Source: an uncultured bacterium (lineage in GTDB: Bacteria; Patescibacteriota; Minisyncoccia; Phycocordibacterales; Phycocordibacteraceae). From it: a DNA stretch of 64,000 nucleotides. The stretch is taken from contig CAWKPH010000001.1 of assembly GCA_963851445.1 (NCBI GenBank), positions 159,943-223,942 on the forward strand. The letters run 5' to 3'. Shown here one piece after another: positions 9,420 through 51,170 of the stretch (position 1 is the stretch's first letter; every line of letters begins with the position of its first letter). The position numbers and the translations under genes are program-made. A model generated the notes under the pieces. That model ran no database searches. It had not been told where the DNA came from and worked only from the letters and a program-made list of their open reading frames with translations.

Positions 9420-9510
9420 GGAGACGTGGCTGAGTGGTCGAAAGTACCTCACTGCTAACGAGGCAGGGGTTAATAGCCCCTCGAGGGTTCGAATCCCTCC
9501 GTCTCCGCCA
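9420..9510 (+). tRNA. tRNA-Ser (anticodon GCU), class II with long variable arm, CCA encoded
   Basis: Acceptor GGAGACG/CGTCTCC, anticodon loop CUGCUAA, long variable arm, T-arm GAGGGTTCGAATCCCTC, 3' GCCA. Confidence 0.85.
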
Positions 9511-21112: not shown

Positions 21113-21201
21113 GGTTGGTTTTTCCCATAGTACTACATAGTTCGTTTTCTTTTATTCATTTTATTTACAGGTTCCTTCCGACAGGATATGCTCGAGGGAC
21201 T

Positions 21202-22077
21202 ATGTCACGACAACGGTTACTTAAAATGGCCAAATTCATCGGTGTATGCCTTGTTTGCATCTTCGCAGCCATCGGCTTTACGCTGGTTGCTGGGTATGTC
21301 GCGCTGGAGCTCGGCCTTACCAAAACCCCGGGAATTATAGACATGCAGCGCACAGCATTTCTCGATAGTGGCACCTCTACATCAACAGCAGATTTAGCTC
21401 CTGAATATCCTAATGGAACACCTTGGCAAAATACGCAGGAATGGGCAGTGCTCGCAGCTGCAATCACGAAAGATGCGCCGGTGATCGACCAGGCTGCTGC
21501 TGCGTCTGGAGTACCTGCGCGCCTCATTGTTGCGAATCTTATCGTTGAGCAACTGCGACTTTTCTTCACTGAACGAGGCTACTATGAACAATTCTTTGCG
21601 CCTTTGAAGATTCTCGGCGCACAGACACAATTCTCGTGGGGCGTCATGGGAATGAAAGACGACACAGCAACTGAGGTAGAGAGCAACCTTACAAATCCTT
21701 CTTCGCCCTTTTATCCAGGGGCCCAGTATCAGCACCTTCTTGACTACAGCGCGACTTCCACAGCATTAGACAGTATCGATGATCAGCGATTTGCTCGACT
21801 AACTGATCAAGACAATCATTACTACAGTTATCTCTATGCAGGTCTGTACTTAAAGGAAATAGAAACACAGTGGCAGAACGCTGGCTTCCCTATCGCAAAT
21901 CGTCCTGATATTCTCTCCACGCTCTATAACATTGGCTTCCAATACTCAATGCCCAAAGCAAATCCAGAAGTTGGTGGTGCTGCAATAGCTATCAATGGGG
22001 TTACCTATAGTTTTGGCGGTCTTGCGAATCAATTCTACGAGTCCAATCTACTGACGAATCTCTTCCCTATACAGTAA
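21202..22077 (+). CDS. Hypothetical membrane-anchored protein
   Basis: Start taken at MSRQRLLKMAKF. One TM helix, then a 250-aa extracytoplasmic domain. No recognised motif. Confidence 0.5.
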   Translation: MSRQRLLKMAKFIGVCLVCIFAAIGFTLVAGYVALELGLTKTPGIIDMQRTAFLDSGTSTSTADLAPEYPNGTPWQNTQEWAVLAAAITKDAPVIDQAAAASGVPARLIVANLIVEQLRLFFTERGYYEQFFAPLKILGAQTQFSWGVMGMKDDTATEVESNLTNPSSPFYPGAQYQHLLDYSATSTALDSIDDQRFARLTDQDNHYYSYLYAGLYLKEIETQWQNAGFPIANRPDILSTLYNIGFQYSMPKANPEVGGAAIAINGVTYSFGGLANQFYESNLLTNLFPIQ

Positions 22078-22115: not shown

Positions 22116-22189
22116 CCATCCTTAGCTCAGTTGGTTAGAGCATCGAGCTTATACCTCGAGGGTCCCTGGTTCGAGTCCAGGAGGATGGA
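22116..22189 (+). tRNA. tRNA with anticodon UAU (would read AUA; tRNA-Ile-like), no encoded CCA
   Basis: Acceptor CCATCCT/AGGATGG, D-arm GCTCAGTTGGTTAGAGC, anticodon stem TCGAG/CTCGA with loop CTTATAC, T-arm CCTGGTTCGAGTCCAGG. Confidence 0.7.
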
Positions 22190-22233
22190 CCGATTATGCT
22201 ATGCTTGGGTGCATATAATAAAGTATAGAGATT

Positions 22234-22482
22234 ATGTCTATTGAAGATCCTTTCAGATCAGGAGAAGTCTCACCAGAGGATGTGAATGCGGCTCTTGAGT
22301 CTTTGAGACAAACATACTTTCATCCACTCGACTCAAATTCCGACAGTGAGGCATGGAGAGAGGCATGGAGAGCGGCCGTTGCATACTATAAAACACAAGG
22401 TGTCGATGCGCTCGACGGAGCTCCAAGAAACTTTGAGAAGGTACTAGAAAGTAAGGGCGTTAAGGTTGAAGAAGGATATTAA
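22234..22482 (+). CDS. Small hypothetical protein
   Basis: 82-aa ORF convergent with ftsH. No recognisable motif. Confidence 0.35.
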   Translation: MSIEDPFRSGEVSPEDVNAALESLRQTYFHPLDSNSDSEAWREAWRAAVAYYKTQGVDALDGAPRNFEKVLESKGVKVEEGY

Positions 22483-22493
22483 GCAAGAGATAT

Positions 22494-24527
22494 TTATCCT
22501 AAAGCGTTTCCTTCGATTTCGTCCCCACTCTTTTTAAGATTCTCCTGGATAATTACACCTGTTTCGTCTTCTTTCTTTTTTGGCGTGATGCCATTAAGTA
22601 TAAGTAGTTTTTCGAATTCTTCACGTTCGAGAGTCTCTACCTCAACAAGTCTGAGTGCAATTGAATCAAGCGCCTTGCGGTGGGTTGTGATGACTTCAGT
22701 CGCCATTCGTTTACCATCTTCAATGAGACGCGCGACCTCTGAATCTATCTTTGCAGCAAGCTCTTGTGAATAAACCTCATTGCCAAATGAATTACGCTCC
22801 ACAGCGAACGCTGCAGGACCAATCGCGTCGCTCATACCATACTTAGAAACCATATCGCGTGCGAGACCAGTCGCAACGGCAAGGTCATTTGATGGCCCGG
22901 TTGTAAGATCATCGAAAATAAGGACCTCGGCTGCGTATCCACCAAGCATGGTCGCCAAATCATCGATAAATTCCTTCTTCGAAGGCATCTTCTTGTCCTC
23001 GAATGGAAGTTTAAGTGTGTAACCGCCCGCTCGCCCACGGCTAATAATTGAAACTTTGTGGACAGGATCGGCGTAGGGAAGAACGGATGAAACCAGTGCG
23101 TGTCCTGCTTCGTGATAGGCCGTGATTTTCTTTTCCTTACGCGAGAGAAGGTGTGATTTACGTTCAGGACCAAGCATCACTTTCTCGATGGAACGCAGCA
23201 AATCGTACTGCGTAATCTCTTTACGATTCTCACGCGCCGCAAGAATTGCTGCTTCGTTCATAAGTGAATAGAGTTCGGCGCCCGAAAATCCCGGTGTGCG
23301 CTCCGCAAGGACCGCTAGGTTCACGTCGGGACCAAATGGTTTCTTGCGCGCGTGCACTGCAAGTATCTCTTCGCGATCTTTGCGATCAGGAAGATCGATG
23401 GTAACGCGACGATCGAAACGTCCTGGCCGTAGAAGTGCTGGATCGAGTACATCAGGACGGTTTGTTGCAGCCATGACAATAACTTTTTCAGTCGGCTCGA
23501 ACCCGTCCATTTCAACAAGGATTTGATTAAGTGTCTGTTCACGCTCATCGTTTCCTCCCCCTACGCCTGAGCCACGCATGCGACCGACAGCATCGATTTC
23601 ATCTACAAAAATAATTGCAGGAGCAGAACGCTTTGCAAGCTGGAACAAATCTCGGACACGTGACGCACCAACGCCTACAAACATCTCAACAAATTCTGAA
23701 CCCGAAATCGAGAAGAATGGCACGCCCGCCTCCCCCGCGACTGCTCGTGCAAGCAGCGTCTTTCCGGTACCTGGAGCACCCATTAACAAAATGCCTTTAG
23801 GTATTCTTGCACCAATATCCAGGAACTTCTTAGGATTCTTCAAGAAATCAACAATTTCGAGCAACTCTTCTTTTGCCTCTTTTGCACCAGCAACGTCTGC
23901 AAACGTAACACGCTGATTTGTGTCGGCAGGATCAATCATGCGCGCCTTAGATTGTCCAAACGTGAATGCCTGCATACCAGCACCGCGCACCTGACGAATG
24001 AGAAACCAGAATAGGACTGCAATGAGGATAATCGGCAATATGATGGGCGCGAGCTCGACGAGCCAATACATAAATCCTGATTGGTCGGTAATTGAGAGAT
24101 TTACCGCAGAAAGTTCTTGCGGTGTAACACCGTACGGAACGAGCGTTTGTGGGAGTGCGTCATCAGGGTCCTTCATTGAGGTCTTCTGACTGCCGTCCTT
24201 ATAGGTGAGCGTAAGGTCATTGCCTGAGACGACAAGTGTCGTCACATCTCCCGATTTAATATCGTTTGCAACCTGTGAGAGTGATATAACTGGCTTTGAT
24301 TTCGTGCCGGTAGCAATGAGTGTGTAGGCACTCATGAGAAGGAGGAATATGAGGATTATGGAAACAAGATTGCTCGTGAAGCCCCCGCCAGGCGTTAGCC
24401 AGTTTCGAGGACCGGTATCCTTGCCAGTCCCTCCTGTATTACTGCCCTGGACGGGTCTTTTGCCGCCACCTCTTTTATCGGTGGGTGGCTTCTGTTTAGT
24501 AGGCGCCATAGTGAAGACACTATACAA
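22494..24527 (-). CDS. ftsH: ATP-dependent zinc metalloprotease FtsH
   Basis: Two N-terminal TMs, AAA Walker [19 protein letters not shown] zinc motif. 677 aa. Confidence 0.9.
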
Positions 24528-24582: not shown

Positions 24583-25026
24583 ATGACCTATATTGAAAAC
24601 AAGAAAGCCCGGCTGCGGTTCTCAGTTTTGGAGACATTCCAAGCAGGAATTGAGCTGTCAGGATCTGAAGTAAAGGCTATACGGAGCAAGCTCGGGAGTA
24701 TTGAGGGTGCCCGGGTATTGGTACGAGGAGGCGAAGCGTACATTGTAGGAATGACGGTGCCGCCGTACCAAGCGGCCAATACTGCCGCTGCCTATGATCC
24801 TGAACATACACGTAGACTTTTGCTTTCGAAGAAAGAAATCGCGCAATTAGCAGAGTCCGAAGCAAAAAAGGGCTTGACAACAGTGCCTTTAGAAGTGTAT
24901 AATGCGGGAAGATATATCAAAGTTCGCGTGGCGATCGTACGAGGTAAACGTAAAGAAGACCGTCGCGAAGAACTAAAGAAGAAGGATGCGGAGCGTGAGA
25001 GTGCTCGCGTCCTAAAACGTACCTAA
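24583..25026 (+). CDS. smpB: SsrA-binding protein SmpB
   Basis: Full-length SmpB fold (ARLRFSVLETFQAGIELSGSEVKAIR...). tmRNA gene follows immediately. Confidence 0.9.
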   Translation: MTYIENKKARLRFSVLETFQAGIELSGSEVKAIRSKLGSIEGARVLVRGGEAYIVGMTVPPYQAANTAAAYDPEHTRRLLLSKKEIAQLAESEAKKGLTTVPLEVYNAGRYIKVRVAIVRGKRKEDRREELKKKDAERESARVLKRT

Positions 25027-25064: not shown

Positions 25065-25476
25065 GGGGGTGACTGGTTTTGACGGTCTGCTCTTTGAAAG
25101 ACGTGCGACGCGATGGAAGCTTGTTGACCATCTAAATCTCGCAAGCACCTAAACTTGCTAACAATTCTGTTGCAAGCGCAAAGCTTTCACCTTTCCAGAT
25201 GAAAGATTTTGCGTTCGCGTACGTAGGAGCTCGAGCGTAAGCTCGCTTCGCCTATGCGACGTTCACTAACCCCGGGTTCCTATAGCCGGATTAGTGGGCG
25301 GAATCTTCTATAGGATCGGTAGTCGTGTGCCCACACGTACTGTCTAAACTACGGGCGTAGATGTACAGGGTTTCGTTTCCGTTTTTACCTGTACATTGAA
25401 ACTTCAATTGAAACTATGCGTCGTAGATTCGCTTTCAAAGCCGGATTCGGACGGGAGTTCAACCTCCCCACCTCCA
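25065..25476 (+). ncRNA. ssrA: tmRNA (SsrA)
   Basis: 5' GGGGGUGACUGGUUUUGACGG and 3' GGACGGGAGUUCAACCUCCCCACCUCCA-A-CCG form the tRNA-Ala-like acceptor with the G3:U70 wobble pair. Tag ORF starts about 92 nt in (GCU AAC ...) and stops with UAA at 25238-25240. Lies directly after smpB. Confidence 0.75.
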
Positions 25477-25483
25477 CCGATAT

Positions 25484-28409: not shown

Positions 28410-28760
28410 ATGCCACGTGTAAAAGGAGGACTTATATCGCAGAAGCGTCGCCGCAACGTACTCAAGCGTGCCAAGGGCTATCGCCATGGCAGGGGTACCA
28501 AGGAGCGCCAGGCTAAGGAGTCATTAGTTCATGCAGGAAAGAATGCTTTCGCACACCGCAAGGATAAGAAAAGTGATTACCGCTCCCTTTGGATAGTGCG
28601 TCTTAATGCGGCAGTTCGCGAAAACGGCTTCAAATCGTACAGCACCTTCATCAGTGCTCTAAAAAAGCAGAATATCGAGCTTGACCGCAAGGTGCTCGCC
28701 GAATTCGCTCAGAAGGAACCTGAAATTTTCACGCGCATCGTGAAAAAAGTGAACGTCTAG
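28410..28760 (+). CDS. rplT: 50S ribosomal protein L20
   Basis: MPRVKGGLISQKRRRNVLKRAKGYRHGRG..., 116 aa. Confidence 0.9.
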   Translation: MPRVKGGLISQKRRRNVLKRAKGYRHGRGTKERQAKESLVHAGKNAFAHRKDKKSDYRSLWIVRLNAAVRENGFKSYSTFISALKKQNIELDRKVLAEFAQKEPEIFTRIVKKVNV

Positions 28761-30154
28761 ATTTTCTTCACTCCTTCCTTGGTGATCATAAAACTCTCGC
28801 CCTTCACAGGGACGTACGCCTGTGCACCGAGGTAGTCATGAATGCGCTGCGCAAGGAAGCGGGCAGAGGAGGGTTCGCCTAGCGCCACGAAGAAATTCTT
28901 AGTTTTACCACCTGACTCAGGTTGAGCAGCATGGGCGAATTCGAGAAGCTCGTCGCGATCAGCATGCGCTGACCACCCCACAAAGGTCTCTATTTTGGCG
29001 CGTACGGAGACGTCATAGCCTTCTATGCGAACTGTTGGTGCCCCGTCCTGAAGCATGCGCCCGGGGCTTCCTGGAGCCTGGTAGCCTACAATGAAAAGCG
29101 TGGTCGAGGCATCGGGTAGATATTTCTGCTCCCAGCGCCCAATGCGTCCCCCATGACTCATGCCAGCACCTGCCATGATTATTTTTGGGTTTGGAGCTTT
29201 TTCTATCTCTTGAGACTCTTCGCGTCGGAGAGTCTCGTGGAGAAATGGAAATTTGAATAGTTCATGTCGTTGTTTTAATTCATCTTCCGCTTCCGGTTTG
29301 AAATAGCTGCTTCCCCATTTTTCATACACTTCAGTAACCTTGATGGCGAGCGGCGAGTCGAGGTACACGGGAATATGTGGTAGTTCGCCACTTTCCATCA
29401 ATTTCGATAATTCGTATAAAAGCAGCTGCGTTCGTTCTATCGAGAATGCGGGCATGAGAATTACACCGCCACGCTCAAGTGCACGTGTAACGGAATCTCG
29501 CAGAAGCGCAACACGATCTCGCTTGTCCTTGTTTACACGATCACCATAGACACTTTCCATGAGGACTGCATCAGCGTCAGTGATAGATTCCCAATTGGGC
29601 AAGTAGGGTGAGGGTGAGTTTCCGATATCGCCCGTGAGTGCGAGTGTCGTACCATCTTCATCCTTCACTCGTACACTCGCGGAACCAAGAATGTGACCCG
29701 TAGGTCGCAGCAGCACCGAAAGTCCCGGCGCCACATCGATTTCCTTGTGGTACGGAATAGTTTCGACGAGTGCCATGAGTTTACTCACATCCTCATCGCT
29801 ATAAAGTGGCGATAGGTTATATCTGTTGGCTTCTTGCAGAAGGATGCCCACCGTATCACGCAGCATGAGCTCGGTAAGATCCTTTGTTGGTTCGGTCATG
29901 TAGACCTTTCCCTTGAATCCTTCTTTCACCAGTTTTGGTGCTCTCCCGATGTGATCGAGGTGCGCATGGGTGATCACAACGGCATCTACCGATGAAACGT
30001 CATACGGGAATGGTCCGTACATCTCTTTTTGAACAAAATCGCTACCCTGCTCGATACCGCAATCAACAAGAATTTTTCCCTTAGTGCCCTCAACCATAAA
30101 ATTTGAACCTGTTACTATTTCCGCACCTCCATAACAAGTTAGTTTGAGTGCCAT
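28757..30154 (-). CDS. MBL-fold beta-CASP family ribonuclease (RNA-metabolising metallo-beta-lactamase)
   Basis: HAHLDH metal motif, beta-CASP motifs, C-terminal RNA-specificity region. 465 aa. Confidence 0.75.
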   Translation of the reverse strand: MALKLTCYGGAEIVTGSNFMVEGTKGKILVDCGIEQGSDFVQKEMYGPFPYDVSSVDAVVITHAHLDHIGRAPKLVKEGFKGKVYMTEPTKDLTELMLRDTVGILLQEANRYNLSPLYSDEDVSKLMALVETIPYHKEIDVAPGLSVLLRPTGHILGSASVRVKDEDGTTLALTGDIGNSPSPYLPNWESITDADAVLMESVYGDRVNKDKRDRVALLRDSVTRALERGGVILMPAFSIERTQLLLYELSKLMESGELPHIPVYLDSPLAIKVTEVYEKWGSSYFKPEAEDELKQRHELFKFPFLHETLRREESQEIEKAPNPKIIMAGAGMSHGGRIGRWEQKYLPDASTTLFIVGYQAPGSPGRMLQDGAPTVRIEGYDVSVRAKIETFVGWSAHADRDELLEFAHAAQPESGGKTKNFFVALGEPSSARFLAQRIHDYLGAQAYVPVKGESFMITKEGVKKI

Positions 30155-34778: not shown

Positions 34779-35426
34779 CTACGCTGATTTCAGCTGCTTG
34801 AGGGCTTCGACCGTTGCGCGAGCAATAGTGAGCTTATTCTTTGAACGGGAAAGAATCTTCGTGACGACGTTTGTGACACCGCCGTACTCAAGAACGATGC
34901 GCATGGCGCTACCGGACACAAGACCGCGACCAGGTGAAGGAATTATTGAAACAGTCGATGATGCATACTTGGCACTAACGTCGTGTGCGATAGATCCTTC
35001 TTTTGTAAGAGGAATCGTGATCAAATTCTTTTTTGCAGCGCGAACCGCTTTGTCGATCGCGAGCGCAGTATCGTTTCCCTTTCCAATACCAACACCTACG
35101 CGACCCTTACGATCACCAATGACAACGGTGACGCTGAATGAAAAGCGGCGACCGCCAGCCATGACGCGCGCAACACGACGTACGTCTATGGTAACTTGAT
35201 CGAATTCGCTGCGCTCGCGAGGAGCACGATCGCGACCGCGACCGCCGCCACGTGCGCCCCGCCCTGCATCGCGACGCTGACGGATGGCCGTCGGCGCCTC
35301 AGTAGGAGCTGCCTCGAGAACTACCTCCTCTTCAACGGGCGTGCCCTCAGGCATTACAAGCCCTTCCGCTTCTTCGTTCTCTTGCACTGTCTCTGCTTCA
35401 TCCATAAGAGTTGTAGCTTCGGCCAT
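34779..35426 (-). CDS. rpsE: 30S ribosomal protein S5 (with acidic then Arg-rich N-terminal extension)
   Basis: ...RRFSFSVTVVIGDRKGRVGVGIGKGND... Confidence 0.9.
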   Translation of the reverse strand: MAEATTLMDEAETVQENEEAEGLVMPEGTPVEEEVVLEAAPTEAPTAIRQRRDAGRGARGGGRGRDRAPRERSEFDQVTIDVRRVARVMAGGRRFSFSVTVVIGDRKGRVGVGIGKGNDTALAIDKAVRAAKKNLITIPLTKEGSIAHDVSAKYASSTVSIIPSPGRGLVSGSAMRIVLEYGGVTNVVTKILSRSKNKLTIARATVEALKQLKSA

Positions 35427-49965: not shown

Positions 49966-51170
49966 TTATGCGACGATCTTGGTTACAACACCAGCACCGA
50001 CGGTCTTGCCGCCTTCACGAACTGCGAAGCGAGTGTTGTCCTCAAGTGCGATAGGAGCAATGAGCTTTACCTTGAAGGTAACAGTGTCGCCTGGCATAAC
50101 CATTTCCTTTCCTTCAGGAAGAGTAACTTCGCCGGTCACGTCCGTCGTGCGGATGTAGAACTGAGGCTTGTACCCAGAGAAGAATGGAGTGTGACGACCG
50201 CCTTCGTCCTTAGTGAGAATGTATACTTCAGCTTCGAATTCAGTGTGAGGAGTCACTGAACCAGTCTTTGCAAGAACCTGACCGCGGTGTACATCTTCTT
50301 TCTTCGTACCGCGGAGAAGGATACCAGCGTTGTCGCCAGCCTGACCTTCCTGGAGCTGCTTGTTGAACATTTCGATACCAGTAACAGTCGTCTTTGCGGT
50401 TGGCTGAATACCGACGATTTCGACTTCTTCACCAACCTTGACGATACCGCGCTCGATACGGCCGGTGACAACCGTTCCGCGACCTTCAATAGAGAAGATG
50501 TCTTCGATAGGCATAAGGAATGGCTTGTCGAGTCTCGCGCTCTGGGTTGGGAAGTAGGTGTCCATTGTGTCAACGAGTTCCTTAACCTTTAGAGCCCAAG
50601 GATCGTCAGCTGAAGTTAGCTTCAAGAGCCTTAAGACCTGAGCCGCGGATAACTGGCGTAGCTGCGCCATCAAAGCCCTGCTTGGTGAGAAGTTCACGGA
50701 TTTCCTCTTCAACGAGGTCGACCATGTCCTGGTCATCAACCATGTCTACCTTGTTAAGGAAGACGATGAGTCTTAGGCACACCAACTTGCTTTGCAAGAA
50801 GGATGTGCTCACGAGTCTGAGGCATCGCGCCGTCAGTCGCAGCAACCACGAGCACTGCGCCGTCCATCTGAGCGGCACCAGTAATCATGTTCTTGATGTA
50901 GTCGGCGTGGCCTGGAGCATCAATGTGCGCGTAGTGACGATTCGGCGTCTCGTACTCCGAGTGGTGGAGGGCGATAGTAATACCACGAGCCTTTTCTTCA
51001 GGCGCGTTGTCGATATTATCGACCTTCTCGGCGCGGGCCTTGTAGCCAGCATCCTTGTTGAGATTGAGGACGTTGAGGATAGCAGCGGTGAGCGTGGTCT
51101 TGCCATGGTCAACGTGACCGATGGTGCCTACGTTCATGTGCGGCTTGCTGCGATCGAATGCTTCTGCCAT
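49966..51170 (-). pseudogene. tuf: Elongation factor Tu, split over three reading frames (at least two frameshifts)
   Basis: G-domain [27 protein letters not shown] (50754-51170). Middle ...[27 protein letters not shown]... in a second frame (50606-50878). Domains II-III ...[27 protein letters not shown]... in a third (49966-50739). Confidence 0.85.

Follow-up and report, generated by a model that had tools for sequence, protein, structure and literature searches.

The window, by which we mean the whole 64-kb stretch of DNA analyzed here, carries a tRNA gene with a UAU anticodon close to ftsH and smpB. The features of this neighborhood are as follows.

21115..22077 (+): 320-aa ORF, predicted protein, same strand as the tRNA, ends 38 nt before it
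22116..22189 (+): tRNA-Ile(UAU), 74 nt, from ARAGORN, Rfam RF00005, an identical Logan assembly and a covarying family
22148..22154 (+): anticodon loop C32-U33-U34-A35-U36-A37-C38, from the sequence, the ARAGORN anticodon position (35) and the Rfam alignment
22234..22482 (+): 82-aa ORF, hypothetical, between the tRNA and the ftsH 3' end; called as a gene in the Logan contig
22494..24527 (-): ftsH (Pfam M41/AAA/FtsH_ext), conserved syntenic partner of the tRNA
24583..25026 (+): smpB (Pfam SmpB), divergent from ftsH, in the slot where tilS sits in TilS-using bacteria
25065-25479 (+): tmRNA, 415 nt, adjoining smpB; Rfam 86.5 bits, missed by ARAGORN

The tRNA gene and its neighborhood

The first-pass annotation had described a clean cloverleaf, and two programs bear this out. 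ARAGORN, run on the window as had been proposed, places a tRNA-Ile (tat) gene at 22116-22191(+), its anticodon located at position 35 of the gene. The Rfam tRNA model RF00005 aligns full length to 22116-22189(+), scoring 68.9 bits (gathering score 29, E 6.3e-13) with zero non-canonical pairs. The two calls describe a canonical elongator cloverleaf whose 7-nt anticodon loop has U33 and a purine at position 37. The loop, already read in that annotation as CUUAUAC with U33, A37 and anticodon UAU, falls in the consensus anticodon-loop columns of the Rfam alignment; C32 lies at 22148, the anticodon at 22150-22152 and C38 at 22154, and sequence, ARAGORN and Rfam concur on all of this. The acceptor stem has 7 bp (CCAUCCU/AGGAUGG), opening with C1-G72 and followed by discriminator A73. 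CCA is not encoded, CCG standing directly 3' of the gene, unlike tRNA-Ser(GCU) at 9420-9507, which does encode CCA.

A C-to-T error in the anticodon was worth checking for because tuf, in the same window, carries two frameshifts. An independent Logan assembly, made from another read set (ERR11630394; L001), agrees with the window at 100% identity over 2,995 bp, anticodon loop included; T34 is therefore not an assembly error. The gene is continuous over its 74 nt in both ARAGORN and Rfam, and with L001 added, these sources turned up no other fold or anticodon, no intron and no misread loop. The single-sequence MFE fold of the window tRNA failed to recover the cloverleaf core (z -1.9), which is usual for unmodified tRNA sequences; structure was judged by the covariance model and family covariation, not by the MFE fold. 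A promoter and terminator scan around the window tRNA was uninformative, shuffled sequences containing more such sites.

The tRNA lies 305 nt beyond the ftsH 3' end, in convergent orientation. Among 60 loci showing ftsH (window counted), 58 place the tRNA downstream of it, 44 co-directionally and 14 convergently, with a median gap of 193 nt. These loci were picked via a tRNA pattern, and a separate sample was picked by FtsH similarity alone. The three relatives chosen in this second way, L156, L157 and L159 (83%, 80% and 75% FtsH identity), all have tRNA-Ile(UAU) directly after ftsH, with smpB upstream; retention of the position in FtsH-selected relatives indicates that the tRNA is a stable chromosomal feature, not an insertion. 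The 320-aa ORF on its other side has no Pfam or NCBIfam match. It has tblastn matches of 46-57% identity in L010, L058 and L077, and counterparts at the same position in L156, L157 and L159 (unannotated ORFs of 276-291 aa); judged from these matches, the predicted protein is a conserved neighbor of the tRNA in close relatives.

Elsewhere the window holds a pyrB/pyrD/amidohydrolase cluster, recG, malic enzyme, pilB/pilT/pilM and an S10-spc ribosomal-protein operon with secY. The nearest FtsH homologues (73-87% identity) are labeled Pacebacteria, Paceibacterota, Parcubacteria, Minisyncoccia or Patescibacteria group. On these labels, the window is part of the chromosome of a Paceibacteria-type member of Patescibacteria (CPR).

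Several further observations concern individual genes. The tmRNA has large insertions relative to the Rfam model, and its 3' end reads ACCG. The tuf (EF-Tu) gene, 49966-51170 (-), occupies its canonical place upstream of the S10 operon, and its coding sequence runs through three reading frames, with frame changes of single-base type near 50770-50780 (CCTAAG[A]CTCATC) and near 50610-50620, neither in a homopolymer; it is either a consensus error or a pseudogene. At 28757-30154 (-) lies a 465-aa beta-CASP metallo-beta-lactamase RNase, conserved beside ndk in the relatives L156, L157 and L159, which scores 341 bits on the type VII CRISPR Cas14 model and 279 on archaeal aCPSF1, both far below the cut-offs. 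Ribosomal protein S5 (34779-35426, -; 215 aa) has an N-terminal extension of ~70 aa before the region covered by the bacterial model, and scores 139.5 against an NCBIfam equivalog cut-off of 164. Two FtsH homologues, P0033 and P0036, are 1081-1097 aa long with intein/LAGLIDADG Pfam domains (PF14890, PF14528), by which they are classed as predicted intein-containing FtsH proteins of related Patescibacteria.

The meaning of AUA and the spread of the tRNA family

In the 16 confidently annotated genes of the window, ATA makes up 18.6% of Ile codons and occurs 13.0 times per 1000 codons, a frequency that counts as "high" on the scale of PMC12514573. The ribosomal-protein/secY/tuf block uses it less (6.9 per 1000), and ATA is nevertheless present in 16 of its 20 ORFs; the presence of the codon in so many parts of the translation apparatus makes AUA decoding indispensable. 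What the codon means was approached through alignments of FtsH (45 sequences) and SmpB (28), in which we took the nine columns where the window has ATA and counted the orthologue residues encoded by non-ATA codons. These columns hold I at 45%, L at 13%, V at 11.5% and M at 1.7%, a profile indistinguishable from that of ATT/ATC columns, whereas ATG columns hold 51% M. Nine columns are few, but the difference is wide. Because the ATA columns resemble ATT/ATC and not ATG columns, AUA is, on this comparison of sequences, read as Ile here. The codon usage and the column profiles together uphold the first-pass expectation that the UAU tRNA decodes AUA as Ile.

The same annotation had suggested comparing identity elements with those of tRNA-Ile, and the comparison favors Ile at the major positions. 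A73 and the anticodon are recognized by IleRS, with t6A37 as a further element for enzymes of the bacterial type (PMC9976931, from which the determinant list is taken); the major determinants A73, A35, U36 and A37 (the t6A site) are all present in the window tRNA. Minor elements are mixed. U12-A23 is present, whereas the tRNA has U4-A69 in place of C4-G69 (found in 77 of 96 family members) and G29-C41 in place of C29-G41; all three were defined for the type-1 IleRS of E. coli and may not apply here. The pair C1-G72 together with C38 is atypical for a bacterial tRNA-Ile, and the amino-acid assignment by ARAGORN derives from the anticodon alone.

A search pattern that fixes only the D-arm, the loop CTTATA and, in the variable region, GGTC found the tRNA in at least 119 species-representative genomes. 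Among the matches listed, nearly all are labeled CPR, namely Saccharibacteria, Parcubacteria/Paceibacterota, Nomura-, Kaiser-, Taylor-, Adler-, Uhr-, Magasanik-, Falkow-, Dojka- and Shapirobacteria and Peribacteria/Peregrinibacteria. Twelve matches bear other labels (L008, L021, L036, L046, L078, L086, L114, L116, L117, L017, L059 and L062): they comprise "uncultured Gammaproteobacteria" co-assembly MAGs, including the 931-kb chromosome OZ246400.1, one "archaeon," one Chloroflexi and one Flavobacterium, and are either mislabeled small-genome MAGs or additional lineages with tRNA-Ile(UAU).

From 114 full-length copies (96 distinct sequences) it emerges that 99.0% of stem cells in the distinct sequences form standard pairs, with three to five pair types at most stem positions, and that A73 is invariant in 114/114 copies. 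Stem pairing kept through compensatory changes, along with the invariant discriminator, marks this as a working tRNA rather than a pseudogene. Two subtypes can be told apart. The first, to which the window tRNA belongs, has the loop CUUAUAC (C38), usually with G31-C39 and C2-G71; C1-G72 occurs in 45 of the 114 copies. The second is conventional, with G1-C72 and A38. A C at position 1 is found in only three of 50 other tRNAs of the same loci, all of them tRNA(CAU) genes with initiator-like CGCGGGG/CGGGGGA 5' ends. The 1-72 pair varies even among close relatives, L156 and L157 sharing the CCAUCCU acceptor of the window and L159 having GCAUGCG.

The first-pass statement that a UAU tRNA-Ile is rare holds for bacteria generally and fails within Patescibacteria, given the species representatives above and the three FtsH-selected relatives that carry the gene. 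There it is a conserved, standard feature of the group (CPR), and its annotation is ordinary for the lineage. Full-text searches on lysidine, TilS or the decoding of AUA in CPR groups yielded no relevant paper; in the full texts searched, subscription journals and tRNA databases aside, the CPR-wide spread, the ftsH linkage and the C1-G72/C38 signature appear to be undescribed.

TilS, CAU tRNAs and the competing readings

Telling AUA from AUG is a classic problem of the genetic code, for which bacteria are usually said to rely on TilS; to our knowledge, this enzyme is essential in most bacteria studied and exclusive to bacteria. That lysidine and TilS are the norm, and that UAU genes are known from a few lineages lacking tilS, had been noted in the first pass in agreement with PMC3575796. 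The record as of 2013-2014 comprised nine species without tilS, belonging to three clades, with TAT genes in 19 bacterial species in total, some of which had both systems, and 371 metagenomic TAT tDNAs of unknown origin (PMC3575796, PMC4013482). Bacterial tRNA-Ile(UAU) is a known kind of molecule, and by its sequence features the window tRNA is one of them.

With T at 22150, on which L001 agrees, the window tRNA lacks the C34 (CAT) of a TilS substrate. No ORF in the 64-kb window has TilS, IleRS or MetRS character. TilS was absent from the window and from ~1.03 Mb of UAU loci by PP-loop motif screen, by tblastn with genuine TilS and by profile HMM, an outcome unremarkable in itself, since with one tilS placed at random per ~0.8-Mb genome a sample of ~1 Mb would miss it about one-third of the time. 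The HMM was built from 120 sequences, gathered by a homologue search seeded with the TilS of metagenome contig L148, whose matches were Desantisbacteria and Firmicutes enzymes only; it recovers TilS beside CAU tRNAs in five control loci. These negatives apply to the window, which is ~9% of its source contig (687,765 bp), and to the sampled loci.

More telling positions could be inspected directly. Of the 31 UAU loci with at least 1.2 kb visible upstream of ftsH, none has TilS in that slot, and 24 have smpB there, within 2.5 kb. Six loci combine the UAU tRNA with clustered CAU tRNAs, and in each of them the CAU tRNAs number exactly two. A CAU version of the CPR tRNA scaffold was not found among 34 CAT matches in 241 M metagenome records. 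The tilS-free ftsH slot, the two CAU tRNAs, the missing CAU scaffold and the negative TilS searches favor, without proving, a replacement of the lysidine system.

Not all Patescibacteria lack TilS; Southlakia is a TilS user. In this cultivated Saccharibacterium (Southlakia epibionticum), the gene directly upstream of ftsH is tilS (SEML1_0730), which two of three essentiality columns score as essential; in its vicinity are three tRNA-Met(CAU) genes, and the annotation lists a single tRNA-Ile (PMC10633639 supplements). Metagenome contig L148 shows the order tRNA(CAU)-tilS-ftsH. We also observed TilS-adjacent tRNA(CAU) genes whose loop, CUCAUAC, has an unusual C38, in L148 (232-2127), L122 (10159-11936), L137 (5247-7043), L128 (3-1591) and L131 (3-408); the closest named TilS is that of Candidatus Desantisbacteria (60% identity), and by their sequence these pairs look like a compact tRNA-Ile2/tilS module. 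Parts of both AUA-decoding systems are linked to ftsH, with tilS upstream (Southlakia, L148) and tRNA-Ile(UAU) downstream (58/60 CPR loci), which may be more than coincidence.

We put at roughly 70% the probability that the window encodes a functional, vertically inherited tRNA-Ile(UAU) that is most likely the principal decoder of AUA, and probably the sole one, in place of tRNA-Ile2(CAU) and TilS. An unlikely alternative, though one to be taken seriously, is that decoding is redundant, with TilS and tRNA-Ile2(CAU) encoded elsewhere in the genome and AUA read by both L34 and U34 tRNAs. The window covers only ~9% of the contig, Southlakia shows that a cultivated Patescibacterium can have TilS, and dual-system bacteria are documented (PMC3575796); against this count the failure of a profile that recovers five positive controls to find TilS in the window or the UAU loci, its absence from the ftsH-adjacent slot in 31/31 informative loci, and the two clustered CAU tRNAs where TilS-using Southlakia has three.

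The remaining readings fare much worse. That the tRNA is not charged with Ile, AUA having changed its meaning (to Met, for instance, as it has in many mitochondria) or the tRNA serving outside translation, could draw on the anticodon-only ARAGORN assignment and the atypical C1-G72 and C38, but is very improbable given ATA columns that fit the ATT/ATC profile (M 1.7%) and not that of ATG (M 51%), and given A73, A35, U36 and A37, which fit Ile (PMC9976931). It is just as hard to credit an artefact or foreign DNA, whether a CAU tRNA with a C-to-T sequencing or assembly error, a pseudogene or a gene carried in by a phage or mobile element: the two frameshifts of tuf do indicate imperfect sequence quality, but the L001 assembly is identical, the same anticodon recurs in more than 100 species, covariation preserves the cloverleaf over 96 distinct sequences, and the position between core genes is conserved, with no mobile-element genes nearby. 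AUA reassignment, pseudogene, phage origin and sequencing error were each considered and are disfavored by the column test, covariation, synteny and L001.

A proposed route for AUA decoding and its known counterparts

If tRNA-Ile(UAU) is the main AUA decoder, it would read the codon by direct U34-A pairing. Charging would fall to IleRS, via A73, A35, U36 and probably t6A37, and the anticodon-binding domain of that enzyme would have to tolerate U34. The E. coli-type IleRS rejects U34 through Trp905, an obstacle solved by Arg865 in Mycoplasma mobile and by type-2 IleRS in Bifidobacterium and Neorickettsia (PMC3575796). By analogy, tolerance in the window organism might come from a type-2 C-terminal domain, as in the latter two, or from a basic residue, as in M. 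mobile. A class-I synthetase motif screen of the window and loci gave ValRS-like ORFs and no IleRS. The annotation of Southlakia IleRS has no C-terminal Zn-finger Pfam match and shows two tandem C-terminal subdomains, so that in sequence it looks like type 2, which we offer as a lead.

Avoidance of AUG could likewise be achieved in either of two candidate ways. U34 may stay unmodified, with properties of the ribosome and the competing tRNA-Met keeping AUG out, as in M. mobile, or it may carry a modification. The Southlakia table lists MnmA and not MnmE/MnmG (PMC10633639 supplements), a hint that the phylum may lack xm5U-type wobble modification. We speculate that decoding may be tuned by the conserved C32/C38 and G31-C39, which adjoin an anticodon made up of A and U only, and by the frequent C1-G72.

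A far broader proposition is tentative, and we hold it to be somewhat doubtful: that lysidine plays no part in AUA decoding in much of Patescibacteria/CPR (Paceibacteria, many Saccharimonadia and other classes), which would rely on an ancient, vertically inherited, ftsH-linked tRNA-Ile(UAU) with C32/C38, G31-C39 and frequent C1-G72, while a minority such as Southlakia retained or regained TilS. Should it be true, lysidine-free AUA decoding would be a clade-defining trait of a major fraction of bacteria and not of a few exceptions, and the 2013 list of nine species in three clades would grow into a major evolutionary branch. The proposition would also be relevant to the idea that AUA was originally read by UAU (PMC3575796), and a new modification of U34 or an adaptation of the ribosome could be at work. 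A superphylum that bypasses TilS would also make the enzyme less universal as a marker gene or drug target than assumed, and would offer CPR as a natural system for studying how the ribosome or U34 modification keeps AUG from being misread. Taken alone, the window provides the correct annotation of a known tRNA type and points to an exception to the TilS rule on the scale of a superphylum.

Among known systems, the eukaryotic cytoplasmic tRNA-Ile(UAU), with its pseudouridine-A-pseudouridine anticodon, is likewise a UAU-encoded AUA reader and is served by a type-2 IleRS. Its genes need an intron for pseudouridine formation at positions 34 and 36, and such an intron, 3' of position 37, is absent from the window tRNA. 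The tRNA-Ile2(CAU)/TilS system of E. coli, B. subtilis, Southlakia and L148 performs the same task, assigning AUA to Ile while avoiding AUG. It differs in that C34 stands where the window tRNA has T34, so that the latter cannot be a TilS substrate (and no TilS was found nearby), and in that tilS lies upstream of ftsH in Southlakia and L148, whereas the UAU tRNA of the window lies downstream. Bacteria with both tilS and tRNA-Ile(UAU), such as Lactobacillus casei/plantarum, Cyanothece PCC 7424 and Ferrimonas balearica (PMC3575796), are isolated species; the window tRNA, by contrast, is conserved over many classes of a superphylum, with no tilS in the DNA sampled.

Closer counterparts are found among tilS-less bacteria. 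Bifidobacterium and Neorickettsia have tRNA-Ile(UAU), lack tilS and possess an eukaryote/archaea-type IleRS2 whose C-terminal domain is thought to accept U34 (PMC3575796); the apparent type-2 IleRS of Southlakia resembles theirs, yet Southlakia uses TilS, so the resemblance serves only as a lead. The tRNA-Ile2(UAU) of M. mobile (Taniguchi et al. 2013, PMC3575796) shares with the window tRNA a gene-encoded UAU, AUA read as Ile with no need of lysidine and the lack of an intron, and in both genomes AUA is a commonly used codon. For M. mobile, the absence of tilS, an unmodified U34, Arg865 of IleRS and ribosomal rejection of AUG have been shown experimentally (PMC3575796), whereas the window tRNA is known from sequence. 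M. mobile is also a species-level exception within the unrelated Tenericutes, while the window tRNA belongs to a syntenic family that extends across a clade of Patescibacteria and is set apart by C1-G72 and C38.
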